This document shows positions 3,983 to 46,333 of a DNA stretch of 64,000 bases, in pieces. Every line of letters starts with the position of its first letter. The stretch's first letter is position 1. Location: contig OZ246404.1 in NCBI GenBank assembly GCA_965230955.1, positions 685,426 to 749,425 of the forward strand, read 5' to 3'. This DNA is from an uncultured Candidatus Saccharibacteria bacterium. Its GTDB lineage: Bacteria > Patescibacteriota > CALEFQ01. Under the pieces are notes generated by a model, which worked only from the letters and a program-made list of their open reading frames with translations, was not told where the DNA came from and did no database searches. A program made the position numbers and the translations under genes.

Positions 3983-4052
3983 AATTCAAAATGCATAATT
4001 CATAATGCAAAACTACTAATCCAGATTATGCATTTTGAATTTTGAATTATCA
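3983..4052. repeat. Inverted repeat ttcaaaatgcataat / attatgcattttgaa (family E, TGCATTTTGAATT)
   Basis: Perfect 15-bp arms with a 26-nt spacer. A related motif occurs at 22017-22050. Confidence 0.6.
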
Positions 4053-5920: not shown

Positions 5921-7054
5921 TCATATCGATTTAACAATCTCTTCAACGGTAACATCCTTTCCCCCCAATCCATATATCCGACTGATCACTTCCGGCGCCG
6001 GTTCCAGCCCATAGAGCGCGTTCCGGATTTCACCGACCAGCGGAGCTTGCGCGCCGTAAGACATCGAGCGGTCATAAACAATCACGCGGCGCACTCCCGC
6101 CAGAGCGCGGCGGATTTCATTATAAGGAAAAGGACGAAAAAGTATCGGCTTCAGCAAACCGACTTTCCGCCCGTCGCGGCGCAAGACCTCAACCGCTTCT
6201 TTGGCCGTACCGGCGGTGGAATTAAGAAAAACCAAAGCCGTGTCAGTATCACCGAATTCTTCGACCGCCTCGTCCTCATACAACTCAAACAGCGGATAAG
6301 CTCGCCCGGTCAGAGATGAAAGCTGTTCGCCCAACTCAATATATTTTGCCTTGACGCTTTCCAAAGTCTCGTGCTGATTTATCCGAAAATCCATGTACTG
6401 CTCCGGCAGAACCAGCGGCCCCCAGGTGGAAGGATGATCGACATCCAAAGCGCTTTTCTCGATGGAACGCCCGCCGACAAATTCCGCCGCCGATTGATCA
6501 TTCAGAATCTCCAGGTTTTCCAGAGAATGAGTCGTGACAAAGCCATCCAACAGGACCATCGCCGGCAACTGGATATCTTTGTCCTCGGCAATCTTCGTCG
6601 CCAACAACATGTGTTCATAAACCTCCTGAACATTTTCACAAGCGATTTGTATCCAGCCCAGATCGCGAGTGCCCATGCTATCCGAATGGTCGCAGTGAAT
6701 ATTAAGCGGGCTGGAAATCGCCCGGTTGCCGACAGCCATCACAATCGGCAAACGTAAACCGGCGGCGACACCCAAAACTTCCCACATCAGCGCGATCCCT
6801 TGCGAGGCCGAAGCCGTGATCACGCGAGCGCCGGCGATCGAAGCCCCGACGGCGATACTCATAACCGCATGTTCCGATTCGGCCCGGACCACTTCTCCGT
6901 CGAGCCGACCTTGCGCCGCCATGTCAGCGACCGTTTCAATGATTTGAGTTTGCGGAGTAATCGGATATACCGGAATCACGTCAACTTGCAATTGGCGTAT
7001 CGCTTCGGCCACCGCTTGCGAGCCGGTTAATAATGTTTTATTTACTGTCTTCAT
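5921..7054 (-). CDS. porA: Pyruvate:ferredoxin oxidoreductase alpha subunit
   Basis: Conserved POR/KOR alpha N-terminal domain with the transketolase-like fold. Confidence 0.85.
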   Translation of the reverse strand: MKTVNKTLLTGSQAVAEAIRQLQVDVIPVYPITPQTQIIETVADMAAQGRLDGEVVRAESEHAVMSIAVGASIAGARVITASASQGIALMWEVLGVAAGLRLPIVMAVGNRAISSPLNIHCDHSDSMGTRDLGWIQIACENVQEVYEHMLLATKIAEDKDIQLPAMVLLDGFVTTHSLENLEILNDQSAAEFVGGRSIEKSALDVDHPSTWGPLVLPEQYMDFRINQHETLESVKAKYIELGEQLSSLTGRAYPLFELYEDEAVEEFGDTDTALVFLNSTAGTAKEAVEVLRRDGRKVGLLKPILFRPFPYNEIRRALAGVRRVIVYDRSMSYGAQAPLVGEIRNALYGLEPAPEVISRIYGLGGKDVTVEEIVKSI

Positions 7055-7304
7055 CGATCATTTCTATGGCTTTGCGCGGCGCCGGACAAACTTGGGCGCA
7101 AACTCCGCAGCCTTTACAATAAGTTAAATCCAAGCCGGAAATTTTACCGTCTTCGGCTTGCCAGCACTGATCCGGACAAAAGTTAACACAAGACAAACAA
7201 TTGATGCAATTTTGCTTCAAATGTTCGGGTTTTTTACCCGTCCGCCAAGAACCGGTTTGGTAATTGATAGACGAGCCGGGTTGGTCGATACGCGAAGAGG
7301 ACAT
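7038..7304 (-). CDS. porD: Pyruvate:ferredoxin oxidoreductase delta subunit (2x[4Fe-4S] ferredoxin)
   Basis: CINCLSCVNFCP and CKGCGVCAQVCP motifs. Confidence 0.85.
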   Translation of the reverse strand: MSSSRIDQPGSSINYQTGSWRTGKKPEHLKQNCINCLSCVNFCPDQCWQAEDGKISGLDLTYCKGCGVCAQVCPAPRKAIEMIDEDSK

Positions 7305-10379: not shown

Positions 10380-11366
10380 TTATAATTCCGTTACCATGAT
10401 CTTGTCCAAATGATTCTCGATTTCCTCCAGTTTCATGGCCCCGTCATGAGCGCCCCAGCGGCGCGTGACCGCGCCGGCATTGATCGCCCCCATTTTCAAA
10501 GAGGTGGTAATGTCCTTCCGCATCATCAACCCGCCGACAAAAGTAGCGCCGAAAGTATCACCGGCCCCCGTCGCGTCCACCGACTCAAAGCGGTAGAGCG
10601 GAACCTGATACCAGCGGCGTCCGTCGTAAAGCGAAGTTCCCTCTTTGCCCTGCGTCAGCAAGATATACCGCGGTCCCAGATCGGATAACTTTTTTAGGAT
10701 GGTGCGTAAATCGTTCATTTCTTCTTTATCAGTGATGCGCAACAAACGAACCGCTTCATGATGATTCAGAATCAGCACCTCCACTCTTTTAAGCAAAACC
10801 GCCAGCGCTTCCGGCTCGTTCAGCTGGACCAGTCCCGGATTCCAAGCCAGAGCGACTGTTTTCGGCAACCGGGCTAAATAGTCGATGTCTTCCTGCCAAG
10901 TTGCGCCGGACAAGGCCGAGAGATAAATCCATTCGGACGGGGGTAATCCCCGCTCGGCCAGCCCCAAACTGTCGCTGGCCCCTTTGTAATTAAACGACAA
11001 ATGTTCTTGGCTCATGACATCATGAATCAGAAAAGACAATCCGGTTTGTTGGCCGGAAGCCACTTTTACCAAGGAAGTATCAAGACGGGAATTTACCAGA
11101 TAGCGCACGAGATTTTTACCGCTACTGTCATTTCCCACCTGAACCAGCGGGACGGCGGAACAGCCCAGTTGGGCCAAAACCATCGCCGTATTCACACCGG
11201 CGCCGCCGAATCTGACGCGTAAATTTTCCATCGGGATTTTGTCATCCAGTCCGAAACCCAAAAGCGCCGGAACGCTAACCACCCCCGGCTGTTTAACCAC
11301 TTGCCCGCCGGCAATTTCCCCGAAAAAATCCTGCAAGGCGCTGCCGATTGTAATGATGTCGAACAT
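10380..11366 (-). CDS. PfkB-family carbohydrate kinase. It may be a phosphofructokinase or ribokinase-like enzyme heading the glycolytic cluster.
   Basis: DATGAGDTFGATFV motif and N-terminal GG motifs. Confidence 0.75.
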   Translation of the reverse strand: MFDIITIGSALQDFFGEIAGGQVVKQPGVVSVPALLGFGLDDKIPMENLRVRFGGAGVNTAMVLAQLGCSAVPLVQVGNDSSGKNLVRYLVNSRLDTSLVKVASGQQTGLSFLIHDVMSQEHLSFNYKGASDSLGLAERGLPPSEWIYLSALSGATWQEDIDYLARLPKTVALAWNPGLVQLNEPEALAVLLKRVEVLILNHHEAVRLLRITDKEEMNDLRTILKKLSDLGPRYILLTQGKEGTSLYDGRRWYQVPLYRFESVDATGAGDTFGATFVGGLMMRKDITTSLKMGAINAGAVTRRWGAHDGAMKLEEIENHLDKIMVTEL

Positions 11367-11369: not shown

Positions 11370-11446
11370 TGGTCTTTAGTCGTTAGTCTTTGGTCTTTAG
11401 ATTAATCGAGAAAAGCTAAAGACTAAAGACGAAAGACTAAAAGATC
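11370..11446. repeat. Palindromic heptad-repeat element, family B (TCTTTRG)
   Basis: Sequence tggtctttagtcgttagtctttggtctttag ... ctaaagactaaagacgaaagactaaaag. The right arm overlaps the gpmI stop codon. Confidence 0.7.
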
Positions 11447-13046: not shown

Positions 13047-13105
13047 GAGTCTTTGGTCTTTAGTCTTTGGCTAACGACCAAAGAATAAAAACCGCTGACC
13101 AAAAA
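13047..13105. repeat. Heptad-repeat element, family B
   Basis: Sequence agagtctttggtctttagtctttggctaacgaccaaagaataaaaacc. Confidence 0.6.
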
Positions 13106-14444: not shown

Positions 14445-14506
14445 TTGTCTTTAGTCGTTAGTCTTTAGTCTTGGGCTAACGACCAAAGACTAAAGACCAA
14501 AGACTT
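14445..14506. repeat. Palindromic heptad-repeat element, family B
   Basis: Sequence gtctttagtcgttagtctttagtcttgggctaacgaccaaagactaaagaccaaagac. Confidence 0.7.
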
Positions 14507-17692: not shown

Positions 17693-17725
17693 TAAGTCAA
17701 AAGTCAAAAATAAAAAGTCAAAATT
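17693..17725. repeat. Heptad tandem array, family A (one arm only)
   Basis: Sequence aagtcaaaagtcaaaaataaaaagtcaaaa. Confidence 0.5.
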
Positions 17726-17728
17726 GCA

Positions 17729-17962
17729 TTAGGATGCGCCCAGGTATTCAAAGCGGGGAATTTTTTTTCCGTCTTTTTCAACCGTTTCCATAAACATCTT
17801 TTTCGGCCGAGCCCAGAGCGCCCCGCGACCGTATTTGGGCTGATCGTAAAGAGCGCGATAAAAAACCAGTTCTTCCAGGGTTTCCGAATGATGCCCCACG
17901 CCGATAACTTCGTATTCATTTCCTTTGTAATGCCGATAGCGGCCGATCTTAACCTCGTCCAT
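17729..17962 (-). CDS. DUF1653-family small protein
   Basis: Motif YRHYKGNEYEVIG...HSET...VFYRALY. Confidence 0.6.
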   Translation of the reverse strand: MDEVKIGRYRHYKGNEYEVIGVGHHSETLEELVFYRALYDQPKYGRGALWARPKKMFMETVEKDGKKIPRFEYLGAS

Positions 17963-19743: not shown

Positions 19744-19756
19744 ATTTTCTCTTCTT

Positions 19757-19795
19757 AAATCTTATATCTTATATCTTATTTCTTATTTCTTTCTG
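19757..19795. repeat. Heptad tandem array, family D (TAAGATA)
   Basis: Sequence cttaaatcttatatcttatatcttatttcttatttc. Confidence 0.55.
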
Positions 19796-21133: not shown

Positions 21134-21877
21134 TTATTCCGTTAGAACTTCACAGCCGTCCGCCGTGACCGCTACCGTGTGCTCGAAATGAGCATTGAGG
21201 CGTCCGTCAGCCGAAACAAAAGTCCAGCCGTCAGGCAAGCATTTGACTTCCGGCTGACCGAGAGCCAGCATCGGTTCGATCGCCAGGGTCATCCCCTCTT
21301 TTAATTTTATCCCTTTGCCGGGCGTTCCGAAATTAGGAATCTGGGGCTCTTCATGGACCCGGTGTCCGACCCCATGCCCGACCAAATCGCGAATGACGCT
21401 ATAGCCCTGCTCATCGGCCACTCTTTCCACCGCCGCTCCGATATCGCCCAGAGTATTGCCGGGCTTCACTTGCTGAATCGCCGCCGCTAAAGATTTTTCG
21501 GTTGTATCGATCAGTTTTTGGACGGAACCGGGACCGCGGACAACCAATTGAGATAAAGCCGCATCGGTATATAGCCCTTTATAGCGCACCCCTAAATCCA
21601 GACTGATCAGATCACCTTTTTTTATTAAACGATTGCCAGGAATGCCGTGGACTATTTGGTCATTAAGTGAAACACACAAAGCGGCCGGATAACCCTGAAA
21701 ATTTTTGAAGGACGGTTCGGCCCCGCGCTTGGCCAGCTCTTGCTCGACAAATATTTCTAATTCTTTAGTCTTTATGCCGGGCTTAATTCGTCCGGCCGCT
21801 AAATTTAAAACTTCAGCTAAAATTCGCCCGCCCGCGCGCATTTTCGCGATTTCTTCGGTTGTTTTGATCAGTCCCAA
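21134..21877 (-). CDS. map: Type I methionine aminopeptidase
   Basis: Conserved MetAP fold. In the spc operon it normally follows secY and adk. Confidence 0.88.
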   Translation of the reverse strand: MGLIKTTEEIAKMRAGGRILAEVLNLAAGRIKPGIKTKELEIFVEQELAKRGAEPSFKNFQGYPAALCVSLNDQIVHGIPGNRLIKKGDLISLDLGVRYKGLYTDAALSQLVVRGPGSVQKLIDTTEKSLAAAIQQVKPGNTLGDIGAAVERVADEQGYSVIRDLVGHGVGHRVHEEPQIPNFGTPGKGIKLKEGMTLAIEPMLALGQPEVKCLPDGWTFVSADGRLNAHFEHTVAVTADGCEVLTE

Positions 21878-22016
21878 GGCTTTGAATTACGCAAAAACGG
21901 TCTTTTCCAGCGAGCCGGAAAAGCGATTTTTCCTTTAAAATTATAACATTTTAACTATAATTCTTCAATTTTCAAAAGGGGAAAACTATTCAATTAAAAA
22001 CATGAAATTGTAATCT

Positions 22017-22050
22017 TGATTTTGCATTTTGAATTATGAATTCTGAATTT
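22017..22050. repeat. Family E motif (tttgcattttgaattatgaatt)
   Basis: Similar to the element at 3983-4052. Confidence 0.5.
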
Positions 22051-22105
22051 CTTAAAAAAAATCTCCCCACCCGGTTACCCAGGCAGGGAGAAAAATTCAC
22101 ACGGT

Positions 22106-22870
22106 CTAGAACTCCTCAACCCCCAGCGGAAAACACCCGAGAAGGCTGAGACGACCGCCATCACCGCAGTCCCAGTCGATGCAAAAGAGGCCATTACCAT
22201 CGAAGCCGCCGATCAGCAGGCGCAAATCATCCGAACGCACCGTATCGGTTCGTACCCAGTTGCAGTCCAGCGGAACCCGCTCGCCGATGCGTTTGAAGTG
22301 GGAGAGGATCAGGCCGGAGAGCAGAGCGGCGCTACCGAAATTGGAAAGGTGATGCTCGGGAAGCGAATGAGCTTGCCGGAGATCTGCTAAAAGCTGGAGC
22401 TGCTCATCTTTGTTCTTTCCCGTGCTGTTGGCAACCAACCGAGGCACGAAGAAGACCAGAGCATCAGGCGTCGGCTCGTCATTCTTGAGCTCACAATCCT
22501 GCAAGTACCCGAACCCCTCATAGCAGGGACCGGCCAGCGGGGCGTGAACCTTCAGGATGAAACCGGCACGCACCAGAATCGCTACCGGCCCGGTGTAGCC
22601 CAGGCTGGTCGCAATCTGGCGCCATTCCCGAACAACACGCTCCGCCTCAGTGCGCTCGTAACCCTTGCGGGACACCAGCATCTCGATCGCCTCTTCGTCG
22701 GAAAAGTAAGTAAAGTAAGTCGACTCCACCACACGTCGCACGAGATCTGCCGCGAACGCCTTGAGGTCATCGAGATGATCCACCAGCACGACTAACTCTT
22801 CGTCGGTCAGCTGATCGAGCACGGCGACCACGCCTTTGAAACTCGCTTTTCTTTCTTTCACATTGTCCTC
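22106..22870 (-). CDS. Hypothetical protein with a Cys-rich C-terminus. It is GC-rich and looks foreign.
   Basis: I placed the start at a GTG at about 22870, preceded by GGAGGacaat. GC content and codon usage are higher than in the neighbouring genes. The track start at 22957 would lie inside the flanking repeat. Confidence 0.55.
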   Translation of the reverse strand, partial: EDNVKERKASFKGVVAVLDQLTDEELVVLVDHLDDLKAFAADLVRRVVESTYFTYFSDEEAIEMLVSRKGYERTEAERVVREWRQIATSLGYTGPVAILVRAGFILKVHAPLAGPCYEGFGYLQDCELKNDEPTPDALVFFVPRLVANSTGKNKDEQLQLLADLRQAHSLPEHHLSNFGSAALLSGLILSHFKRIGERVPLDCNWVRTDTVRSDDLRLLIGGFDGNGLFCIDWDCGDGGRLSLLGCFPLGVEEF

Positions 22871-22897
22871 CTTTTCCCGAAATGGGAAAACGCCCTT

Positions 22898-23014
22898 CGG
22901 CGGGATATTTTTTCTGCTATCCAAATTTTTATCATCTGCCCCTGTTATGCAGGGCATCCTTCCATTTCGCCTCGCTCAGGGTCAGGAGACTCAGTCAATT
23001 TACCTTTTGCATTA
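22898..23014. repeat. Left copy of a ~115-bp direct repeat flanking the 23130..23597 gene
   Basis: About 90% identical to 23680-23789. Sequence cggcgggatattttttctgctatccaaatttttatcatctgcc...cgctcagggtcaggagactcagtcaatttaccttttgcatt. Confidence 0.8.
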
Positions 23015-23033
23015 TTTCGTCTCATCCCAATAC

Positions 23034-23062
23034 TTGACAAAAACAGCGAAAGAGAGTATAGT
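23034..23062 (+). promoter_or_regulatory. Sigma70-like promoter TTGACA, 17 nt, TATAGT
   Basis: Sequence cTTGACAaaaacagcgaaagagagTATAGTg, about 70 nt upstream of the 23130 ATG. Confidence 0.6.
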
Positions 23063-23129
23063 GTATATATCGAAATTACCGTTTTTCCAATTCTGGTCAG
23101 CAGTTTATTGACTGCAAGGAGGTACGCAA

Positions 23130-23597
23130 ATGAAATACAGTTTTGGTGTGTTGGCGCTGGTTCTACTGTCTGCCTTTAATTCCGTGCTCGCTGATGCCGT
23201 TGACTTTCCGCCCGGTAACAACAAAAAGATGCCCGAAGTAGGATTGGCCGCTGCCGAGGATTACGGAGATCGACAGTTTGCAGCGTGGTTACCTTACTTC
23301 CCAAGCGACAAGGATCACGGTACCTTCGAAGTAAGCACCCGCTACACTCTGTTCGTGCTAATCCCGGAGAGCTTTGGACCCGGCGCAACCGTCAAGGTTT
23401 CGGTCAGTCGTGAAGACGCAAAGGTTCCAATCGATGCTGAAGTTCTACTTTTATCAGAAAAGCTGACAACACATTTTCCCTTAGCGCCTGATGGCATCTT
23501 ACGTATTCCCGACAGTGGCGCCTCAATCATGTTACGCGCGCTACCGCCCCTGACCGTCAAATTCGAGAAAGTACCGAGCCTAACGGACGCGCAGTAG
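23130..23597 (+). CDS. Hypothetical secreted protein. The signal peptide is MKYSFGVLALVLLSAFNSVLA.
   Basis: ATG ORF with its own promoter and terminator. Flanked by direct repeats. Confidence 0.6.
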   Translation: MKYSFGVLALVLLSAFNSVLADAVDFPPGNNKKMPEVGLAAAEDYGDRQFAAWLPYFPSDKDHGTFEVSTRYTLFVLIPESFGPGATVKVSVSREDAKVPIDAEVLLLSEKLTTHFPLAPDGILRIPDSGASIMLRALPPLTVKFEKVPSLTDAQ

Positions 23598-23611
23598 CGC
23601 ACAACATCAGA

Positions 23612-23655
23612 CGGAGTACCCCAGCCACTATGGCCGGTACTCCGTTCTTTTTTTA
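23612..23655 (+). terminator. Intrinsic terminator
   Basis: Hairpin cggagtacc...ggtactccg followed by ttcttttttt. Confidence 0.7.
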
Positions 23656-23659
23656 TAAA

Positions 23660-23692
23660 AAAACCGCCTCTCGGCGGGATATTTTTTCTGCT
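23660..23692 (-). terminator. Intrinsic terminator downstream of secY
   Basis: On the minus strand ccgccgagaggcgg is followed by a T-run. Confidence 0.6.
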
Positions 23693-23789
23693 ATCCAAAT
23701 TTTTATCATCTGCCTCTGTTATCTAAGGGATCCTTACCCTTCGCTTCGCTCAGGGTCAGGAGACTCAGTCAATTTTACCTTTTGCATTT
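23680..23789. repeat. Right copy of the ~115-bp direct repeat
   Basis: See 22898-23014. Confidence 0.8.
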
Positions 23790-23798
23790 TACCTTTAT

Positions 23799-25082
23799 CT
23801 AGAACCCCTCGTAATCCCTCATCACCAACTGCGCGTCCAGCTGTTTCATCGTTTCAAGAATTACACTGACCACGATCAAGAGTGCGGTGCCGCCCAAAGT
23901 CAGGGTCTGCACGCCAGTGATAAATTGGATAGTGAGCGGTAAAACCGCAATGATTCCCAGGAAAATCGAACCGGTCAGAGTAATGCGATTAGTAATCTTT
24001 TTAAGATAATCGGCTGTATTTTTACCCGGCCGGATTCCCGGAATAAAGCCGCCGTTCTTCTGGATATTTTCGGAAATATATTTGGGATCGAAGGTGACGG
24101 AAGTATAGAAATAAGTAAACGCAATAACCAAAATGAAATAGAAAATCCCGTAAAAAAGCTGATTTTGGAATAAATCGGCCACTTTTTGGGCACCAGTCGC
24201 GACCCAGCCCCAATTAAGACCGGCGACAAACTGAGCGATAACGCCAGGGAAAAGCATAATGGAGATGGCGAAGATAATAGGCATAACTCCGGCTTGATTG
24301 ACCCGCAAAGGCAAATGCGCCGACGTGCCGCCGTACATTTTGCGTCCGCGCACCCGTTTGGCATAAGACACTGGTATATTTCGCTGGCCTTCCGTCAGCA
24401 AAACCACACCGGCGATGGTGACCACTGCGATGGCGCCAAAAGCGATAATACCGGTCAATTGGGTCGGATCAAAAACCGCTACCGTTTGCTGAAGTTCGGC
24501 CGGCAAACGAGCAATAATACCGGCAAAGATCAGCAGTGAAATTCCGTTGCCGACTCCCTTTTCTGAAATCATTTCTCCGATCCACATCAGGAAGATCGTA
24601 CCGCCGGTAACCGTCACGATAATCGTGACAAAATTCCAAAAACTCAAATTGGTAATCAGAGGCACCGGGCCGCGATTAAGTAAGCTAATCAAACTATAAG
24701 CCTGGAGAGCCGCCAGCGGCACAGTCAAATAACGGGTCCAGCGGTTGATCTTGCGGCGTCCTTCTTCCCCTTCTTCCTTGGCGATTTTTTCCAATTTTGG
24801 AATGACCATCGTCAAGAGCTGCAAGATGATGGACGCGGTGATGTAAGGACCGACGCCCAACATGACGATCGACAGGTTATCCAAACCGCCGCCGGAAAAA
24901 ATATTCAATAAACCGAAAAGCTGATTGTTCTGCATGAACGACCGTAAAGCATCGACATCGACGCCCGGCACCGGAATGGCCGCCGCCACACGAAAGACGA
25001 TCAACATCGCCAGGGTAAACAAAATTTTGTTCCGGATCGACGGAATTTTGAAAATCTGGACGATTTTTTGATACCAAGCCAT
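23799..25082 (-). CDS. secY: Preprotein translocase SecY
   Basis: Ten-TM SecY fold with conserved motifs. It follows rplO, as in the spc operon. Confidence 0.92.
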   Translation of the reverse strand: MAWYQKIVQIFKIPSIRNKILFTLAMLIVFRVAAAIPVPGVDVDALRSFMQNNQLFGLLNIFSGGGLDNLSIVMLGVGPYITASIILQLLTMVIPKLEKIAKEEGEEGRRKINRWTRYLTVPLAALQAYSLISLLNRGPVPLITNLSFWNFVTIIVTVTGGTIFLMWIGEMISEKGVGNGISLLIFAGIIARLPAELQQTVAVFDPTQLTGIIAFGAIAVVTIAGVVLLTEGQRNIPVSYAKRVRGRKMYGGTSAHLPLRVNQAGVMPIIFAISIMLFPGVIAQFVAGLNWGWVATGAQKVADLFQNQLFYGIFYFILVIAFTYFYTSVTFDPKYISENIQKNGGFIPGIRPGKNTADYLKKITNRITLTGSIFLGIIAVLPLTIQFITGVQTLTLGGTALLIVVSVILETMKQLDAQLVMRDYEGF

Positions 25083-25142
25083 GTTTTAGTCTTTGGTCGT
25101 TAGTCTTTGGTCTTTGGTCTTTTGTCGCTTGTCTTTGGTTTT
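25083..25142. repeat. Heptad tandem array, family B (TCTTTGG). It overlaps the 3' end of rplO.
   Basis: Sequence tagtctttggtcgttagtctttggtctttggtcttttgtcgcttgtctttgg. It encodes the L15 tail KPKTSDKRPKTKD. Confidence 0.6.
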
Positions 25143-25624
25143 TCAGACTGGGCGGTTGTTTTCGGCTGTCCGACTGTCTCTATCTTTCCGCCAGACTTGA
25201 GAATCGCCGCTTGCGCTGACTGGCTGAAAGAGATATTTCGAAAACGCATAGAATCAATTTTCCCGGCACCGATAATTTTGGCGCCGCCGCGAGAAGCTTT
25301 GATTAAACCGCGCTGGCATAATGATTTCGGAGTAACCAATTCCCCGTCTTTGAAATGCTTGGCCAAACGGCTCAAACTGACTTCCTCGGCATAAAAACGA
25401 GCGGTTCGCGCGCGAGGATTCTTGTAACCCATACCGCGCAATTTGGGAATTCTCTCGACCAACGACGTCTGTTCGCCTTCAAAACCCAGGCGTTGTCGAC
25501 CGCCGCTGCGCGATAGTTGTCCTTTTTGACCTCGGCCGGATTTGGCGCCTTTGCCACTACCAATACCGCGTCCCCGGCGAAGCTTCTTGTGCTGACGAAA
25601 AATTTTGATATCGTTTATTCTCAT
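25100..25624 (-). CDS. rplO: 50S ribosomal protein L15, with a repeat-encoded C-terminal extension
   Basis: GRGIGSGKGAKSGRGQKGQ motif. Confidence 0.9.
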   Translation of the reverse strand: MRINDIKIFRQHKKLRRGRGIGSGKGAKSGRGQKGQLSRSGGRQRLGFEGEQTSLVERIPKLRGMGYKNPRARTARFYAEEVSLSRLAKHFKDGELVTPKSLCQRGLIKASRGGAKIIGAGKIDSMRFRNISFSQSAQAAILKSGGKIETVGQPKTTAQSEKPKTSDKRPKTKD

Positions 25625-38522: not shown

Positions 38523-38615
38523 CTTAGTTAGTCTTTAGTCTTTAGTCTTTAGTCTTTAGTCTTTAGCCGCGTTTTTAGTCTACCGACTAAAGACTAACGA
38601 CCAAAGACCTAGGAA
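38523..38615. repeat. Palindromic heptad-repeat element, family B
   Basis: Five copies of tagtctt, then a loop, then gactaaagactaacgaccaaagacc. It lies between fusA and rpsG. Confidence 0.75.
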
Positions 38616-38617
38616 AA

Positions 38618-39085
38618 TTATTGGGCGAAATGAGCAAAAGCTTTATTGGCATCGGCCATTTTGTGAACCATATCGCGCTTGCGGATAGCGCCACCTTCTT
38701 TGTTAGCCGCGTCCATGATTTCAGCCGACAGTTTTTCTTGCATCGAATGGCCCTTTCGGCTTTCGGCCGCGCCGATTATCCAGCGGAAAGCCAGAGCTTG
38801 GCGCCGGTGCCCGCGAACTTCGTGCGGGATCTGATAATTAGCTCCGCCGATTCGCTGGCCTTTGACTTCCAGCAACGGGCCGACATTTTGGATGGCTTTT
38901 TCAAAAATTTCCAGCGGATCCTTTTTGGCCTTTTCTTTAATAATCTCAAATGAACGATAAACAATCTTCTGGGCGATACTCTTCTTCCCCCGTTTCATTA
39001 CGACATTAACAAACTTGGCCACGATAACACTATTGAAAATCGGGTCGGGAGTGATTTTGCGTTTTTTAGCACGAGCTCTGCGCAT
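38618..39085 (-). CDS. rpsG: 30S ribosomal protein S7
   Basis: S7 family and str operon order. Confidence 0.92.
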   Translation of the reverse strand: MRRARAKKRKITPDPIFNSVIVAKFVNVVMKRGKKSIAQKIVYRSFEIIKEKAKKDPLEIFEKAIQNVGPLLEVKGQRIGGANYQIPHEVRGHRRQALAFRWIIGAAESRKGHSMQEKLSAEIMDAANKEGGAIRKRDMVHKMADANKAFAHFAQ

Positions 39086-39088
39086 AAT

Positions 39089-39160
39089 TGGTCTTTAGTC
39101 ATTAGTCTTTGGTCATTGGTTCAGTCGAAAGACGAAAGACCAAAGACGAAAGACCTAAAT
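39089..39160. repeat. Palindromic heptad-repeat element, family B
   Basis: Sequence ggtctttagtcattagtctttggtcattgg...cgaaagacgaaagaccaaagacgaaagacc. Confidence 0.7.
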
Positions 39161-39163
39161 AAA

Positions 39164-39607
39164 TTATTTAGCGGCTGCTTCTTTCTTCGCCCCACTGCCA
39201 CGTTTAGTACCATATTTTGATCGACCGCGATTACGTCCCTCAACACCGGCAGTATCCAGGCGACCGCGAACAACATGATATCTGACACCGGGTAAATCTT
39301 TGACGCGACCGCCGCGGATCACAACGATAGAATGTTCTTGTAAATTGTGTCCTTCACCCGGAATATAGGCGGTAACTTCCATCCCATTGGTCAAACGGAC
39401 ACGGCAAATCTTCCGCAAAGCCGAGTTAGGCTTCTTCGGAGTGGTGGTGGAAACTTTGATGGCCACACCACGCTTGAACGGACTACCCTTTTTCAGCTTA
39501 ACCGAGCGATTCTTGTTATGGTTAAACTGGCTCTGCAGTGCAGGAACCGTAGATTTGTACTTAGTTTTTTTGCGTCCCTTACGGACGAGCTGATTGATTG
39601 TTGGCAT
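39164..39607 (-). CDS. rpsL: 30S ribosomal protein S12, with a K-rich C-terminal tail
   Basis: Start at [12 protein letters not shown]. Confidence 0.92.
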
Positions 39608-39682
39608 AAAAATACTTACCACTGTGAATAATCAGTAGACGTGGCCTAGTTTAACAAAAGAGTTTTGGGACGTCAAGGGCTA

Positions 39683-39720
39683 GATTAAGATATAAGAATT
39701 AAGATATAAGATTCAAGAAG
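39683..39720. repeat. Heptad tandem array, family D (TAAGATA)
   Basis: Sequence tagattaagatataagaattaagatataagattcaag. Confidence 0.55.
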
Positions 39721-39741
39721 AAATATGGACTTCGGACGGTT

Positions 39742-40497
39742 TTAATTGCCAGATTTAAGGAAATTAGAAACCTTTTTATAAATCCCTTTCTTCTTCATTA
39801 AAATTGAGCCGCCCATATGACCCCCGCTTTTTAATATCGTCAGCCGGCATTCGGTCAGTCGGGCAAATTTTTTAACCGGGGCGATCGAACAGGAATGGTC
39901 ATCTTGAGCATGAATGATTAAAGTTTTTTGGCCAGAAACTTTGCCGGGATCATTAATCGGACTATAAAACTTGCCGGTAAAAAGCTTGCGCCAGTGTTTT
40001 TGCCAGCCACGATAGCCAGCACCGAAAGCATCTCGTACGAAAGGAACTAATTTGGTCGGCGGTTCATCCCGACTGGGATAACGCCAATCAATCACCGGCG
40101 AAATTGCCACCACCTTCGTCACGCGCGGATCGTTGGAAACCAGCAGTGCGGCCGGTCCGCCAAAACTATTTCCGATGACAAATAACTTTTCCGGCTTAAG
40201 CTTATACTTACGGCCGCTCCTCAAGTCCGTGAAACCTCGCGGCAGCTGGTCAATAATATCCAAAATATCTTGGTGGGGAGAGACTTTTAAGAATTCTCCC
40301 CCGCTCTCCCAACTGCCACGATAGCGAGGTAAAAACACCCAATACCCTTTGGCGGAAAAAAAGCGTAACAGAGCGTCTTTTTTCGGAATACTGGGCATCC
40401 CGCTACACAAAATAATCACCTTCCGGGAAGGCTTGCGAGGAGATAAAAATTCAGACACAATGTCTTGGGCAAAACGGGTGCGAAGTATTTCGGGCAT
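39742..40497 (-). CDS. Alpha/beta-hydrolase fold protein (dienelactone hydrolase / peptidase S9-like)
   Basis: GNSFGG nucleophile elbow, with C-terminal D and H residues. Confidence 0.65.
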   Translation of the reverse strand: MPEILRTRFAQDIVSEFLSPRKPSRKVIILCSGMPSIPKKDALLRFFSAKGYWVFLPRYRGSWESGGEFLKVSPHQDILDIIDQLPRGFTDLRSGRKYKLKPEKLFVIGNSFGGPAALLVSNDPRVTKVVAISPVIDWRYPSRDEPPTKLVPFVRDAFGAGYRGWQKHWRKLFTGKFYSPINDPGKVSGQKTLIIHAQDDHSCSIAPVKKFARLTECRLTILKSGGHMGGSILMKKKGIYKKVSNFLKSGN

Positions 40498-40502
40498 AAT
40501 AA

Positions 40503-40590
40503 TTTAAGATGTAAGATATAAGAATTAAGAACAGAAGACGTTTTATCTTACATTTTATTTCTTAAATCTTATATCTTAGAATATCAAACT
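40503..40590. repeat. Palindromic heptad-repeat element, family D
   Basis: Sequence taagatgtaagatataagaattaaga ... tcttaaatcttatatcttagaat. Confidence 0.7.
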
Positions 40591-41202
40591 ATATACCCAC
40601 TGCACCACCGTGTTGAAAAAAGCGCCGAAAAAAGAGCCGGCAAAAATAACGACAAAAATAAGTAAATACGAACCCCAACGTTCAAATGCCATCACGGCAC
40701 CAAGAGCACGCGCAGGTAAGAATGCGTATATAACTTTGGATCCGTCTAAAGGCGGAATCGGAATCAGGTTAAAAACCGCCAGCACAACATTAATCACGAT
40801 CATGGCATTCAACAATTGAATCAATCCGTTTTCGAAAGGGATTGCGCTGTAAATGACAAACAACTTAAGTATTACGGCAAAAATGGCCGCCAGGACGATA
40901 TTCATAAGTGGCCCCGCCAGCGAGACAAAAGCCGGTCCCCAGCGTTGATATTTAAGATTGTAGGGATTAAACGGCACTGGACGCCCCCAGCCGAAACCAG
41001 CGAAAATTAAAAGCAGCGTCCCGACAATATCGAGATGCTTGAGCGGATTGACCGTCAGCCGCCCTAAATCTTTGGCGGTGTTATCGCCCAGCGTGTAAGC
41101 CATCCAAGCGTGAGCAAATTCGTGCAGTGAAATCGAAAGAACCATGGCCACAATCCAGGCTAAGGCGACAATTGGAGATGAGAATAGTAAATCAAAAAGC
41201 AT
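40576..41202 (-). CDS. Peptidase M50 (site-2 protease family) membrane metalloprotease
   Basis: HEFAHAWMA (HExxH) motif in a TM helix, about six TM segments. Confidence 0.75.
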
Positions 41203-41376
41203 ATAGTCTTATGTTAGCGAGTCTGGAGGATATTTCAAGGAAAATTTAAAATCTAAAAATTAAATTCAAAAGAAATTCACAACATAAAATCTAAAATATT
41301 CAAGTCTTTTTAATTTTCATTTAAAATTTCTTTTTATTTTTTTATTTTAAGCTTTGGATTTCAACCCTATCTACTC

Positions 41377-41405
41377 TTGCCAATCTTCTCTTATTCATAT
41401 ATACT
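41377..41405 (+). promoter_or_regulatory. Sigma70-like promoter TTGCCA, 17 nt, TATACT upstream of rpmB, in an A-tract-rich region
   Basis: Sequence cTTGCCAatcttctcttattcataTATACT. Confidence 0.45.
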
Positions 41406-41444
41406 CTTCTTTGTCCCTATAACTTTCACTAAATATACAAATCT

Positions 41445-41630
41445 ATGTCTCGCGTTTGCTCTATCTGCGGCAAAGGCTCAAAAGTCGTCACTAAGACCGT
41501 ATTTTTGCGTTCGCATACCAATCCCACCGGCAAGAGACGCCAATACCCCAACCTGCAAAAAACGACTTATCAGGGCAAAAAGGTTCGAGCCTGCGTTAGC
41601 TGTATCAAAAAACAGAACAAGACTAAGTAA
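41445..41630 (+). CDS. rpmB: 50S ribosomal protein L28
   Basis: MSRVCSICGKG...RSHTNPTGKRR. Confidence 0.88.
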   Translation: MSRVCSICGKGSKVVTKTVFLRSHTNPTGKRRQYPNLQKTTYQGKKVRACVSCIKKQNKTK

Positions 41631-41682
41631 AAAGTCAAAAGTAGAATTACAAAATTTTTTACTTTTGACCTTCGACTTTTAA
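41629..41682. repeat. Palindromic heptad-repeat element, family A
   Basis: Sequence aaaagtcaaaagtagaattacaaaattttttacttttgaccttcgactttt. Confidence 0.65.
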
Positions 41683-41862
<180 letters not shown>

Positions 41863-41867
41863 TTCCA

Positions 41868-41912
41868 CGCCAATTAAAAAGGTGTGGCCTTTTGGCCACA
41901 CCTTTTTAATTG
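41868..41912 (+). terminator. Intrinsic terminator
   Basis: Sequence aaaaaggtgtggccttttggccacaccttttt. Confidence 0.75.
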
Positions 41913-41918
41913 GCGAAA

Positions 41919-42581
41919 TTATTTCCCCTGCAGCAGATCCATAATCTTCGGCACCATTTCATCCGGTCCGGCCGTCGCTCGAAAAACTTTGACCAGCCCC
42001 TTTTTATTGTAATACATAATAATCGGGTCGGTCAGCTTGTGATAAAACATCAAGCGCTGTTTGACCGTTTCTTCCGTGTCGTCACTGCGTTGCATGAGCT
42101 TGCCGCCGCATTTATCACACTGGCCGTCTTGTTTCGGCATTAGAGCCGGCATCTTTATCCCCTGTTCGTCAATTTCAATGACGTTGTATATTTCTCCGCA
42201 TTTTTCACAAACGCGACGCGCCGTGATTTTTTTGATCAAAATATTTTCGGGTAAATCGACATGCAAAACAGTATCAATCGGGGTAATTTCTTCCAAAATT
42301 TTAGCCTGCTCCAGATTGCGCGGAAACCCATCCAGAATAAAACCCTTTTGAGCATCGGGTTTTTTCAATCTCTCTTTAATCATGCCCACAATCATCTCAT
42401 CAGGCACCAATTTCCCTTGGTCCATGAATACTTTGGCTTCGCGCCCCAATTCGTTCCCCTTCTTTACTTCGGCTCGCAGCAAATCACCGCTGGAAATATG
42501 CGGAATGCCGAGCTTCGGACCGATTTTTTTGGCATACGTCCCCTTGCCCACTCCCGGGGCACCGATGAAAATCAGTTTCAT
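41919..42581 (-). CDS. adk: Adenylate kinase (zinc-lid type)
   Basis: P-loop GAPGVGKGT. Zinc-lid cysteines CEKCGEIY...CDKCGGKL. Confidence 0.92.
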   Translation of the reverse strand: MKLIFIGAPGVGKGTYAKKIGPKLGIPHISSGDLLRAEVKKGNELGREAKVFMDQGKLVPDEMIVGMIKERLKKPDAQKGFILDGFPRNLEQAKILEEITPIDTVLHVDLPENILIKKITARRVCEKCGEIYNVIEIDEQGIKMPALMPKQDGQCDKCGGKLMQRSDDTEETVKQRLMFYHKLTDPIIMYYNKKGLVKVFRATAGPDEMVPKIMDLLQGK

Positions 42582-42597
42582 AGATTTTATTAGTAAA

Positions 42598-43737
42598 TTA
42601 TTTAATCAACTGAATGATATCCTGCGCCACCGCCACGGCCGCTCGGGGCCGAGCCAAACGGGCGATGTTTTCTTTGATTGACGCTTGTTTGGCTTGATCG
42701 CGGAAAAACAAATTCAATTTGTAATCTAGTAAATCCGGAATCTCGACATTAAGCGCCGCTCCCTGCTCCAAAACAAAATTACGATTAGTTTCCTCCTGGC
42801 CCATAATCGGATTGACAATCATCAGCGGCAAACCCATCGACAGAGTTTCGGCGATAGTTAGTCCGCCCGACTTGGAAATCAGCACATCCGCCAGAGCATA
42901 GTATTCTTCGATATTAGAAACCCGGTCAATCACCCTTAAATCATGCGCCGTATGGCGCAGAGCTTCGATCATAGTCGCCCTGACCTTGGGCGAGGAGGCA
43001 ATCACAAATCCTTGCAAAGATAAGTGCATCTGCTGAAGCTGTCGAGTCATTTTAGTCAGAAAAATCTTTTCGATGCCGTCAAGAATCATCAAAACGGTCG
43101 GCTGGCTCAGCTTCAGTTGGTACTTGGACCGCAACTGCGCCTGATCAAACTTTTGAGAAAATCGATCGCTGATCGGGATGCCCAAGGCCTTCACAATCTC
43201 CGGATTAACTCCCTGGGACTTAATATAGGCGCCGACTTCCTCAGTCGCCACATAATACCGCTCGACCGTCGGGTGAACCCAAAAACGGTGTCCGCTAAAA
43301 TCCGTCAAAACAGCCAAGTTTTTTGCCTGGGGAAATTTATGATGCTTCTTCCAGTACGATACCAGACTAAGCGGCAAATGATGGGTATTAATAATCGCAT
43401 CCGGCTCGAACTTCTTGATTAGGCGTTCAAGCTTCCAGGCATTCATTTCCTCCATCACTACACGAGGCTTAAATACAATTTGCTGAAATTTTCTGAAATC
43501 TTCTGTTTCCTTGTAAATATACTTCCAAGCCACCGGAGCTCGGCGAATAGCAAACCCGTACCAGTCTTTATAGATACCTTCAACTAACTTGCTTATATAT
43601 TCCAGGGAATCTACCGTTTGAATTTCCCAATTTGGACGGAGTTGCTGCAATTTTTCCTGAATAGCCAACGACGCCCGCAAATGGCCGCTGCCGATGGAAG
43701 CCTGGAGCAATAAAATTTTCTTGGTATCAGTAGGCAT
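42598..43737 (-). CDS. GT28-family glycosyltransferase (monoglycosyldiacylglycerol synthase / UgtP-like)
   Basis: N-terminus KKILLLQASIGSGHLRAS, typical of MGDG synthases. I placed the start at MPTDTKK. The track N-terminus is encoded by the family C repeat. Confidence 0.75.
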   Translation of the reverse strand: MPTDTKKILLLQASIGSGHLRASLAIQEKLQQLRPNWEIQTVDSLEYISKLVEGIYKDWYGFAIRRAPVAWKYIYKETEDFRKFQQIVFKPRVVMEEMNAWKLERLIKKFEPDAIINTHHLPLSLVSYWKKHHKFPQAKNLAVLTDFSGHRFWVHPTVERYYVATEEVGAYIKSQGVNPEIVKALGIPISDRFSQKFDQAQLRSKYQLKLSQPTVLMILDGIEKIFLTKMTRQLQQMHLSLQGFVIASSPKVRATMIEALRHTAHDLRVIDRVSNIEEYYALADVLISKSGGLTIAETLSMGLPLMIVNPIMGQEETNRNFVLEQGAALNVEIPDLLDYKLNLFFRDQAKQASIKENIARLARPRAAVAVAQDIIQLIK

Positions 43738-43740
43738 AGG

Positions 43741-43832
43741 GACAAATAACAGGTAAAAAGTAACAGGTAACAAAAGGGATTAATCATTCCAATTTGTGAC
43801 CTGTTACTTGTGACTTGTTACCTGATTCTAAC
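43741..43832. repeat. Palindromic heptad-repeat element, family C
   Basis: Sequence aacaggtaaaaagtaacaggtaacaaaagggattaatcattccaatttgtgacctgttacttgtgacttgttacc. Confidence 0.7.
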
Positions 43833-43839
43833 AAACCTT

Positions 43840-44664
43840 TTATTCCAAGTCTACAGTAATATCCCCATCTTGATCAGTCCGCCTGATGACAATCCCCGCT
43901 TGTTCCACCCGCTGAAGTGTCTCACTGGCCGGATGGCCAAAGCGATTGTCAGCGCCCACAGAAAAAATCACTTCTTGCGGCGACACGGCCTTGATCCAGG
44001 CGGCACTGGTGGAATTTTTACTGCCGTGATGACCGGCTTTCAGTATATCGGCCGCGACATTCGACCGGTGATCGAGCAGTTGTTCCTCCACATCAAAACC
44101 GGCATCACCGGATATAAGGATCGACTTTTTCGGAGAATCCACCCGAACCACCACCGAGGTATCATTAATATTTTTCGGCGTTTGACCGCGCCACTGATCT
44201 TCTTCGAGTGGAAATAAGACAGACAGACGAGCCGAGCCGATTTCAAACTGATCACCCGCGTTCGCTATTTCTTCCGTTGCTCCTTCCCGGGATAATGAAT
44301 CCAGGAAGGTCTCAAAATCCCGGCCCTTGTTCAGAGCTCCCGTCCAGACAAAAGTTTTCACGTCAAATCGATCCAGGACATCAATCAGGCCGGCAAAATG
44401 ATCGCTGTCAGCGTGAGTCAAAATAACCACTTCTATCTCTCGGTCAAAATAAGGCATGGCTTCGCCTAATTTTTCAACGATAGTACGCGACGGACCGCCA
44501 TCAACCAATATCTGGGTCGTCCCCTTTTGGATCAGAGCGGCGTCCCCTTGCCCGACGTCAAAAAAAGTCAGCGTAGCGGGTATTTGTGACTGGCAACCGG
44601 CTACTGCTACCAAGACGGCAGTAATGCCGATGGCGACTAAACTATAAAGTAAATTCTTTTTCAT
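43840..44664 (-). CDS. comEC: ComEC/Rec2 metallo-beta-lactamase domain lipoprotein. It corresponds to the C-terminal part of ComEC but is encoded separately.
   Basis: MBL motif ILTHADSDHFAG. The lipoprotein signal ends in AGC. Confidence 0.75.
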   Translation of the reverse strand: MKKNLLYSLVAIGITAVLVAVAGCQSQIPATLTFFDVGQGDAALIQKGTTQILVDGGPSRTIVEKLGEAMPYFDREIEVVILTHADSDHFAGLIDVLDRFDVKTFVWTGALNKGRDFETFLDSLSREGATEEIANAGDQFEIGSARLSVLFPLEEDQWRGQTPKNINDTSVVVRVDSPKKSILISGDAGFDVEEQLLDHRSNVAADILKAGHHGSKNSTSAAWIKAVSPQEVIFSVGADNRFGHPASETLQRVEQAGIVIRRTDQDGDITVDLE

Positions 44665-44676
44665 GAATTTCTAGTC

Positions 44677-44705
44677 TTGACAAATAGAAATAATTGGCTT
44701 AATAT
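44677..44705 (+). promoter_or_regulatory. Strong sigma70-like promoter TTGACA, 17 nt, TAATAT with no downstream ORF
   Basis: Sequence cTTGACAaatagaaataattggctTAATAT. Confidence 0.5.
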
Positions 44706-44711
44706 CCTAAA

Positions 44712-44889
44712 TTGGATCGTCAGTCAGTATTTGGCATAAACCTCATCAAGCGCCGGCAGCAATGGAGTAGTCTAGGTTGTCCACCGACATCCCAAGCATT
44801 CCAGATTCCGGCCCAAGACGGAGCAGCCATCTAAAGACTTTCTGATCCCGCCCTCGACTTCTACGGAAGTTCGAGGGCTCATTTTTTTT
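44712..44889 (+). ncRNA. Candidate small non-coding RNA of about 175 nt. It is an orphan promoter-terminator unit and its function is unknown.
   Basis: It is bounded by the promoter at 44677-44705 and the terminator at 44850-44889. It has no ORF (only ATGGAGTAG). Confidence 0.35.
44850..44889 (+). terminator. Intrinsic terminator
   Basis: A 12-bp GC-rich hairpin gccctcgacttc-tacg-gaagttcgagggc followed by tcaTTTTTTTT. Confidence 0.75.
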
Positions 44890-46333
44890 CCCGGCTCTGC
44901 TTTTTCATCATTTCCCACGCCAAAACAGAAATCACAATAACCATATAGACAGCTAAAACTAACCACCGCCCTTCACCGGCTATCTGCATTGACACCCCGG
45001 GGAGGGACGCTCCCCATTTTACCACTCTTATCCCGTACGTCAGAATCAGCCAAGCCGGATAAGACGCGATCTCCCCCAGCGGCACCGCCACCAGTCCGGC
45101 CAGAGCGACGATAAAAGACGCCGTCATCGCCATCGGAATCGAGGGAAGCAAGATGACATTGATGATTGGCGCGAGCGGAGATACCTGACCGAAATATACC
45201 AAGCTAATCGGAAAAGTCATGGCATTGGCGGACAAAGTCGCCGTCAGGGATTCCCGTAACATCAAAACTTTTGGAACTTTTATCAGATATTTTTCCAACA
45301 GCGGTCCGACATAAACCAATCCCAACACGGCCATAAAAGACAGCTGGAAGCCAATATCAAATCTCAGCACCAACGGATTTATTGCCACCATAATAACCGC
45401 CGTGGCTACCAAGACATTCCGCACGCCGGAAGTTCGACCGCTCTGTTGCGCCAATAACACCAATCCTCCCATCAGCGCCGCACGCACCACCGAGGCTTGC
45501 GCCCCCGTGATCAAAACAAAAGCCGTAATTCCGATTACCGCGATGAAAAAAGACCAGCGCCGACCGGCCCATTTGGTCGCACTGATCATCAAGGTCGCCA
45601 CAATGGTAATGTTATAACCGGAAACCGCCATGACATGCATCGTTCCGCTATCCCGAAAAGCTGATTGGGTCAATTCTCCCACGGCAGATTTTTGACCGAG
45701 CAATATTCCCAAAGCAAAACCCGCTTCCGGCTCCGGCACGGTTTTTTGAAGTGATTGGGCCAGATACTTTTTGGCAACCAAAAGTGCCGCCAGTACCGGA
45801 TTACCTCCCCGGCCGATCACTTCAATCGCCGGCTCATACATAGTTGAATAAATGCCGTACCGCGCCAAATAGTTTTGATAATCAAATTCGGCGAAATTTT
45901 CCGGAGCCTGGAGCTTCCCGCCAAACTCGATTTTCTGTCCATACTCATAAGTCGGATAACGCGGCACCAAAACCAAAACCTTGCCCGCCGCCGCTTCTCC
46001 CTCTGCCTGTTCAACCGCTACGATGAGTTTAGTCCGCGCGGCTAGTTCTTCCGGTTCGGCCGCAATCGTCCCGGTTAATTTTACCTTTTGATCGTTCCAA
46101 TTCCCGACATGATTATCCGGCAGATCTCTCGCCTGACACAGGCGAATCATTCCCAAACCAATAAACAATATTATCAAACCCATCATTAGGCACTTACTAT
46201 TTATCAGGGCCAGGAAAAACCCCGCCGATAATAGTGCCACGGGCCAATACCAATCCGGTTCCCAAAAAGATGCTATTCCCACCCCCGAGAGGAAAGCCGC
46301 TCCGGACCAGAAGAAAATTTTTCCGCGAGACAT
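44879..46333 (-). CDS. comEC: ComEC/Rec2 competence membrane channel domain (DUF4131 plus competence domain)
   Basis: Polytopic membrane protein with the ComEC core. Confidence 0.8.
   Translation of the reverse strand: MSRGKIFFWSGAAFLSGVGIASFWEPDWYWPVALLSAGFFLALINSKCLMMGLIILFIGLGMIRLCQARDLPDNHVGNWNDQKVKLTGTIAAEPEELAARTKLIVAVEQAEGEAAAGKVLVLVPRYPTYEYGQKIEFGGKLQAPENFAEFDYQNYLARYGIYSTMYEPAIEVIGRGGNPVLAALLVAKKYLAQSLQKTVPEPEAGFALGILLGQKSAVGELTQSAFRDSGTMHVMAVSGYNITIVATLMISATKWAGRRWSFFIAVIGITAFVLITGAQASVVRAALMGGLVLLAQQSGRTSGVRNVLVATAVIMVAINPLVLRFDIGFQLSFMAVLGLVYVGPLLEKYLIKVPKVLMLRESLTATLSANAMTFPISLVYFGQVSPLAPIINVILLPSIPMAMTASFIVALAGLVAVPLGEIASYPAWLILTYGIRVVKWGASLPGVSMQIAGEGRWLVLAVYMVIVISVLAWEMMKKQSREKK

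Follow-up and report, generated by a model that had tools for sequence, protein, structure and literature searches.

What separates secY from map in the ribosomal-protein operon of this uncultured Candidatus Saccharibacteria bacterium? The window, that is, the whole 64-kb stretch of contig OZ246404.1 analyzed here, is part of a contig of 1,136,458 bp (a 1.14-Mb genome). As the initial annotation stated, the open reading frames (ORFs) and Pfam matches place secY and map ~1.9 kb apart on the minus strand, with adk elsewhere, at 41919-42581. The interval contains a GC-rich gene and, in the opposite orientation, a 155-codon gene bracketed by two direct repeats (copies R1 and R2). Read along the minus strand, secY is followed by R2, the plus-strand 155-codon gene, R1, the GC-rich gene, a hairpin with a run of eight T residues (T8), a spacer and map. 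We interpret this arrangement, with a probability of about 0.8, as the outcome of two unrelated acquisitions: a solo target gene of a diversity-generating retroelement (DGR), and a secreted ORFan flanked by a duplicated secY 3' flank.

The GC-rich gene carries most of this interpretation, with three features that are needed at the outset:

22106 to 22861, minus strand: solo DGR variable-protein gene, 251 amino acids (aa), GTG start, C-type-lectin/FGE-like fold (from family homology and a structure model)
22124 to 22227, minus strand: segment equivalent to a variable region (VR), the last ~35 codons (...LRLLIGGFDGNGLFCIDWDCGDGGRLSLLGCFPL), located by the hypervariable columns of the family alignment
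22062 to 22091, minus strand: 13-bp GC-rich hairpin with a GUAA loop, then T8; 15 nt past the stop codon and ~35 nt past the VR end

The protein has 61 homologues, all of them unnamed and found in Patescibacteria only. Three (P0064, P0004 and P0005) are 66-72% identical to the window protein and the others 48-57%. In most of the homologous loci, ~100 nt of the 3' end of the gene recur a few hundred bases downstream, and the mismatches between the two copies fall almost entirely at adenines of the downstream copy, the template repeat (TR). For instance, in locus L001 (P0004, 71% identical) every mismatch between the VR (6635-6735) and the TR (7119-7219) lies at a TR adenine; when the local alignment is extended to 6635-6743 against 7119-7227, a few bases more than the homology covers, 16 of 19 mismatches do. 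A bAvd gene and a reverse transcriptase (RT) gene adjoin this TR. L003 (66% identical) has a VR/TR pair with the same adenine pattern, and in L010 (72% identical) a target gene occurs along with an RT. A single TR serves two VRs in L095 (16/16 and 14/14 mismatches at adenines), the second target lying 4 kb away, and the counts are 20/21 in L096 and 18/19 in L098. The RT beside the family templates is ~335 aa long, with bAvd alongside. The TR/VR pair together with bAvd and RT is the anatomy that defines a DGR, and the 251-aa protein therefore belongs to a DGR variable-protein family. In these sister loci the VR would be rewritten by adenine-specific mutagenic retrohoming from the TR, with the participation of bAvd and RT.

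One of these relatives shows a peculiarity of its own. The RT of L010 is 90% identical to that of L001, and its VR (10599-10749) is 6 nt longer than its TR (11106-11210), with two 3-nt indels. TR and VR are thus out of register there, and the element may no longer home.

We then asked how the VR of the window gene compares with the templates of its relatives. This comparison is a proxy, as the templates are the relatives' TRs and not a TR of this genome. Against the L001 TR, mismatches occur at 18 of 27 TR adenines (67%) and at 9 of 74 other positions (12%; Fisher p = 2e-7); against the L010 TR they occur at 17 of 24 adenines and 12 of 80 other positions (p = 5e-7). The variable codons of the window gene fall on AAY codons of both TRs. 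Judged by this proxy, the window VR bears the apparent footprint of adenine mutagenesis. Across the family, the alignment consists of a conserved scaffold and a hypervariable block at the C-terminus. The window VR also keeps an A-free 3' end, CTCGGGTGTTTTCCGCTG, and a sequence resembling the initiation of mutagenic homing element (IMH), GGGGGTTGAGG, the latter conserved between the window gene and its active relatives. A DGR target site needs an IMH at the VR 3' end and, 4-34 bp downstream, a GC-rich hairpin whose 4-nt loop fits GRNA (PMC3240598). The hairpin at 22062-22091 is an intrinsic terminator and possibly a DGR target-site hairpin as well; similar hairpins lie 3' of all seven homologous genes checked.

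The fold agrees with this assignment. The AlphaFold model of the variable protein (predicted local distance difference test score, pLDDT, of 95) matches the C-type-lectin/FGE fold of the variable proteins TvpA (Treponema denticola, PDB 2Y3C), Mtd (Bordetella phage BPP-1, 1YU0) and TaqVP (Thermus aquaticus, 5VF4). The window protein shares with these three a hypervariable segment at the extreme C-terminus, and its close homologues have adenine-only TR/VR pairs, bAvd and RT. It differs from them in that neither a solved structure nor Pfam FGE-sulfatase or DUF1566 shows detectable similarity to its sequence, in being encoded at a locus without TR, Avd and RT, and in lacking a signal peptide, transmembrane segment, membrane anchor or extra domain. 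The product looks cytoplasmic. The C-type-lectin fold of this family is detectable only through structure. The initial annotation could not place either protein of the interval in a family, and neither matches Pfam, NCBIfam, PADLOC or PHROGs; for the larger one that statement no longer holds, as this GC-rich, Cys-rich protein can now be assigned to a previously unannotated DGR variable-protein family of Patescibacteria, for which there is no Pfam model.

The start of the gene had been placed at 22870, giving 255 aa. There is no start codon at that position; the N-termini of the homologues and a Shine-Dalgarno sequence, AAGGAGGA, set the start at the GTG at 22861. The public gene call P0001 (283 aa, 22106-22957, minus strand) begins 32 codons too early, at an ATG within R1.

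The unusual composition of the gene, which had been noted from the sequence, is real: its GC content is 57.9% (68.7% at third codon positions), the highest among the window's 41 ORFs that encode 200 aa or more (mean 49.4 +/- 2.3%). Family genes exceed the GC content of their surroundings by 6-22 points in 7 of 7 loci measured. High GC is thus a family trait and not evidence for a recent arrival between secY and map. The Cys-rich C-terminus is likewise a trait of the whole variable-protein family.

The second gene of the interval is of a different kind, and is described by the following features:

23130 to 23597, plus strand: ORFan, 155 aa; signal peptide at the N-terminus (MKYSFGVLALVLLSAFNSVLA/DA), probably a small beta-sandwich fold
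23034 to 23062, plus strand: sigma-70-like ORFan promoter, TTGACA-17-TATAGT, matching 11 of 12 consensus positions
23611 to 23655, plus strand: ORFan-specific terminator, 10-bp stem ACGGAGTACC / GGTACTCCGT, then TTCTTTTTTT, outside the repeat (read from the sequence)
23011 to 23040, minus strand: candidate divergent promoter, TTGTCA-18-AATAAT, 10 of 12 positions (consensus match only), its -35 element overlapping that of the ORFan

The ORFan promoter and the back-to-back terminators (23611-23655 and 23664-23677) are as first described. The former terminator escaped our hairpin scan because its loop exceeds 8 nt. An AAGGAGG ribosome-binding site lies 7 nt upstream of the start, the signal peptide ends in a VLA/D cleavage motif, and the GC content is 51.9%. 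Given the near-consensus promoter, the strong ribosome-binding site, the signal peptide and the two terminators, the gene looks real. It has no homologue but itself in 5.8 billion clusters, and when 1.84 billion representatives were searched exhaustively with HMMER, only the protein itself and one marginal match were returned. The latter concerns residues 66-100, where a 30-residue strand-turn-strand motif (T.YTLFV...G....V.V) resembles the last two strands of the fn3/Big-type repeats in the 2071-aa protein P0185 (E = 8e-5, summed over 8 repeats). The structure model is all-beta, of low confidence, and resembles generic beta-sandwich domains; we consider the product a probable small secreted beta-sandwich protein. 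If used, the candidate minus-strand promoter at 23011-23040 would give the variable-protein gene a 5' untranslated region (UTR) of ~140 nt that includes R1.

Could the two genes nevertheless form a unit? They had been proposed to make up one horizontally acquired cassette, encoding a secreted effector with its intracellular partner or a new accessory system. They are adjacent and divergent, their -35 elements overlap, and relatives have neither of them between secY and map. Their distributions, however, speak against a partnership. The larger protein has ~60 homologues, and in the ten distinct homologous loci examined the neighbours differ and none is related to the 155-aa protein, which is itself unique in two exhaustive searches. 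Furthermore, the repeats bracket the small gene only, and the GC contents differ (57.9% vs 51.9%). We therefore regard a joint cassette as very unlikely. What survives of the proposal is that the content is lineage specific, that it includes a GC outlier and that one of the genes belongs to a mobile-looking family; the notion of one cassette does not survive, nor does the use of GC, a family trait, as a sign of transfer.

The neighbourhoods of the family vary: its genes lie after clpB, murF, murJ, spoIID or tsaD, or before leuS, and one is beside an insertion sequence (IS) transposase. This variety of contexts, including the one next to the transposase, fits mobility. In that locus (L098, 1002-11221), a complete DGR of the family, an NDK gene and the rve-type IS transposase lie between comEC/MBL-fold genes and an M50 protease-rpsL-rpsG run. 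The same flanking genes occur in the window at 38618-46333, where they enclose a glycosyltransferase gene and the displaced adk (41919-42581) instead. Nucleotide-kinase genes are present in both variable islands.

The repeats have the following features:

22887 to 23014, no strand: R1, directly upstream of the variable-protein gene, matching R2 exactly over a 44-nt core (22897-22940) and a 29-nt block (22973-23001)
23661 to 23789, no strand: R2, the secY 3' flank, which begins 9 nt past the secY stop codon (reached from secY by contigs L011 and L012)
23664 to 23677, no strand: bidirectional intrinsic-terminator hairpin CCGCC-TCTC-GGCGG inside R2, with T-runs on both strands, ending secY (minus strand) and the ORFan (plus strand)

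R1 and R2 are 122-129 nt long and 88-89% identical over 129 aligned columns, at a spacing of 774 nt. The direct repeats of ~115 bp and ~90% identity first reported are real and bracket the 155-aa gene (89% identity), although they are closer to 128 nt long, and the start given for the second copy (23680) was ~20 nt too far in. The 64 kb contain only these two copies (chance expectation 0), and searches with the whole insert or the repeat cores found no further copy in 90 other loci, phages, plasmids or viral contigs.

Because repeats are classic sites of misassembly, we considered whether the 128-nt duplication and the segment with the ORFan could be an assembly artefact, the more so as no independent contig was retrieved across the R1 center and the ORFan. 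Independent short-read Logan contigs from several runs match the window at 100% identity and end exactly 30 nt inside the 44-nt core, on either side (L011 and L012 at 23685, L014 at 22926). A k=31 assembly graph breaks at k-1 = 30 nt, and contig ends at this distance on both sides are to be expected if the reads contain two repeat copies with different flanks. In addition, R1 and R2 differ at 14 positions, unlike collapsed or duplicated reads. We give the artefact almost no credence.

A second alternative is that the repeat is functional in itself, either as the recombination site of a 774-bp mini-cassette or as a cis-regulatory RNA (secY 3' UTR and variable-gene 5' UTR). An R-gene-R arrangement is the expected product of Campbell-type circle integration, the exact blocks of 44 and 29 nt surround a divergent center in a non-random manner (P ~1e-5), and R1 would be the 5' UTR of the variable-protein gene if the minus-strand promoter-like site is used. 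Set against this are the presence of two copies only in the window, the absence of others from the collections searched, and the lack of a common fold, an Rfam match, an attC core, terminal inverted repeats or a recombinase in the ORF list at 19.5-26 kb. On balance a function of the repeat itself is improbable.

We examined the individual candidates behind this judgment as follows. As a structured RNA, the repeat gave no Rfam match at gathering level, and a permissive scan of repeat and spacer gave chance-level matches only, far below gathering. As a shared fold, the minimum-free-energy structures of the two copies differ when both strands are folded (z-scores -1.2 to -2.6). We also reject the repeat as a conserved family leader, since sequence in common with other loci is confined to the ~30 nt directly preceding the start codon. 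It is not a TR/VR pair either: its mismatches are not restricted to adenines, and both copies lie outside the VR. With integron cassettes and their attC sites (such as the Vibrio cholerae repeats, VCR), and with miniature inverted-repeat transposable element (MITE) or IS insertions, the unit shares a short ORF between direct repeats of ~125 nt and ~90% identity. It differs from integron cassettes in that neither copy has an RYYYAAC or GTTRRRY core on either strand, the DNA folds are weak and unlike each other rather than a long imperfect hairpin, and the ORFan has its own promoter. It differs from MITE and IS insertions in that terminal inverted matches reach 7 nt at most, whether the 646-bp insert or the whole R1-to-R2 unit is considered, the duplication is 128 nt rather than a short target-site duplication, and there are two repeat copies only. 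No integrase, transposase or recombinase gene was seen among the ORFs at 19.5-26 kb on reading the ORF list, without a dedicated search.

The order of events can be approached from the start of the variable-protein gene, where one further feature is relevant:

22866 to 22890, minus strand: leader hairpin 2 (UUUUCCC-AUUUC-GGGAAAA) and Shine-Dalgarno GGAGGA, conserved in the family

Homology to the other family loci starts at 22887-22890, exactly at the end of R1. As the family leader begins exactly there, the variable-protein gene appears to have been joined directly behind the secY terminator.

The leader is of interest in its own right. A two-hairpin 5' leader precedes the family genes in seven other loci with differing upstream genes (L001 5950-6000, L010 9950-10000, L003 5950-6000, L004 5772-5831, L096 7950-8005, L095 7960-8015 and L007 5950-6000). 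Hairpin 1 is CUCCUUGGCC-AYUUY-GGUUGAGGA, with 9 bp and compensatory changes at 3-4 pairs, and hairpin 2 has the consensus UUUUCCC-AYYUY-GGGAAAA, directly 5' of the Shine-Dalgarno sequence. In the window, hairpin 1 is replaced by the terminator hairpin of the repeat while hairpin 2 is retained. The two-hairpin leader has no Rfam match; it could act as an attenuator or an insulator and move together with the gene.

In the history that we propose, the variable-protein gene would have been joined behind the secY terminator, in an order and by a mechanism that we infer, and the ORFan transcription unit would have entered later, duplicating the secY 3' flank. Entry could have occurred through a 774-bp circle recombining at the flank, which would leave R-gene-R exactly, or through an insertion-linked duplication. 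The repeat probably arose at the insertion of the ORFan unit. Together, the two events would have displaced the adk/nucleoside monophosphate (NMP) kinase content that relatives keep between secY and map.

Several observations weigh against this account. Nine of the R1/R2 substitutions sit in the 31 nt between the exact blocks (22941-22972 / 23715-23746; permutation P ~1e-5), a clustering that simple neutral divergence does not account for and that suggests partial gene conversion or constraint on the repeat ends. The origin of the repeat is deduced from two copies only, and no empty site or single-repeat genome was found, the closest SecY relative being 65% identical. At the variable-protein gene, the downstream hairpin has a GUAA loop as against the GRNA consensus of phage DGRs (PMC3240598), and it is also a plain terminator. 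Finally, the gene keeps an intact ORF, and its VR 3' end without A residues, the IMH-like GGGGGTTGAGG and its strong downstream hairpin are all conserved, as would be expected if the gene were still a target.

This last point raises the possibility that the gene is a live, non-adjacent target, with a DGR (TR, Avd and RT) more than 20-40 kb away rewriting 22124-22227 in trans. Within the family, one TR can reach a second target 4 kb off (L095), and in other DGRs remote or non-adjacent targets and trans action are documented (PMC5758913; PMC8144416). The machinery itself was not found: tblastn with the L001 RT and Avd gave nothing below E = 0.5 in the 64 kb, blastn (word size 7) found no copy of TR or VR there, and the 228-nt spacer between the gene and map holds no remnant TR. 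Beyond the window, the 1,136,458-bp contig encodes none of the best 120 of more than 8000 RT homologues, which share 59% identity or more with the L001 RT. The VR is assembled unbroken and identical in one contig found in four samples, and a scan with its A-free end, TCTCGGGTGTTTTCCGCTG, of a contig collection that lacks the window itself gave one match, a chance Streptomyces sequence. Moreover, in the survey of Wu et al. targets more than 100 kb distant were confined to a non-CPR (Candidate Phyla Radiation) lineage (PMC5758913), and the conserved 3' sequences encode the conserved residues LGCFPLGVE, so that coding constraint alone may keep them. We consider rewriting in trans doubtful, and lean towards the gene being a frozen variant that was orphaned once its TR-Avd-RT module was lost or left behind.

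The relatives form a decay series consistent with such orphaning, from a complete DGR through a target with a degraded TR to a solo target. L007 shares synteny with L095 except for the 2-kb TR-bAvd-RT segment, which it does not have (L007 6727-6890 vs L095 8733-10850), L004 has no TR within 6 kb, and L097 has a degraded TR-like copy (7103-7230) with eight non-adenine mismatches, a VR-type 3' end and no RT beside it. The window copy resembles the remote DGR targets of Treponema, Legionella and others in that a VR gene far from any RT keeps an IMH-like end and a hairpin, and differs from them in that no matching TR is known. Decay in relatives (L007 and L097) makes orphaning at least as likely as remote targeting. 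RT-based surveys of DGRs miss solo and remote targets by design (PMC8144416), and the late stages of decay are invisible to them. Solo targets bear on the retention or loss of hypermutation in small-genome symbionts and on the persistence of frozen variants.

In other respects the family conforms to the cellular DGRs of CPR bacteria ('clade 2' of Roux et al. 2021, PMC8144416; 'CPR set' of Wu et al. 2018, PMC5758913). Its hosts are likewise Patescibacteria, and it usually has a single adjacent target, a bAvd and an RT of ~335 aa. The targets of CPR DGRs are cellular and have no recognizable transmembrane or conserved domain (PMC8144416; PMC5758913), and those of the present family are no different. 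The window copy departs from this set in being detached from any RT.

A bolder reading holds that either trans hypermutation from a far DGR takes place here or the 774-bp unit is a minimal cassette that moves by recombination at the operon terminator; we judge it quite unlikely. If the former were true, true remote targeting would extend to CPR DGRs, and a diversifying ligand-binding protein would lie directly behind secY and ahead of map. If the latter were true, it would provide a route to ORFan gain in tiny genomes. Under the two-acquisition reading there is no new mechanism here, and what remains of interest is modest: a target gene on its own, an ORFan between repeats and a conserved leader.

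The interval was further compared among relatives and within the window. The remaining features of the locus are:

23799 to 25082, minus strand: secY, last gene of the ribosomal-protein run (ORF; Pfam SecY, E = 6e-110)
21134 to 21877, minus strand: map (methionine aminopeptidase), followed by ruvX (ORF list; Pfam)
41919 to 42581, minus strand: adk, displaced from the secY-map interval (Pfam ADK and ADK_lid)
21878 to 22061, minus strand: AT-rich spacer, 184 nt, 34-40% GC, with heptamer-like repeats as in other intergenic DNA of this genome and inverted repeat I7
21975 to 21948 and 21968 to 21940, minus strand: promoter-like sites for map in the AT-rich spacer (promoter scan)

The ribosomal-protein run closes on the minus strand with rplO (25100-25624) and then secY. 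Neither the variable-protein gene nor the ORFan occurs in the secY-map interval of any of 80 SecY relatives (0/80; 45-65% identical). Most of these relatives have adk in the interval, often with gmk (one or two copies) or pyrH. The content of the interval in this genome is a lineage-specific insertion of odd composition and probably of mobile origin. The repeat-bracketed ORFan and the plasticity of the interval are small examples of the remodelling of the most conserved operon in CPR genomes.

Across the CPR relatives L015-L094 the interval is plastic, with adk alone, one or two guanylate kinases and a divergent adk, or pyrH. Large signal-peptide proteins are encoded downstream of secY in L034 (645 aa), L039 (782 aa) and L081 (297 aa), and secY and map abut with no gene between them in L047, L065, L072 and L087-L089.

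Many intergenic regions of this genome are short arrays of 7-nt units (TCTTATA, AGTCTTT, AAGTCAA and TGAATTN), often palindromic and located after genes. Examples lie at 19753-19794, 40539-40594 and 61696-61794; at 11378-11423, 13048-13093, 14453-14498, 38542-38627, 39088-39173 and 46362-46407; at 17693-17747, 41624-41690 and 51935-51993; and at 22011-22050, together with 3989-4028. From their sequence, these arrays look like terminators made of heptamer repeats. The sole Rfam match at gathering level in the window is the bacterial class A RNase P RNA (RF00010, 201 bits) at 331-747 on the minus strand.

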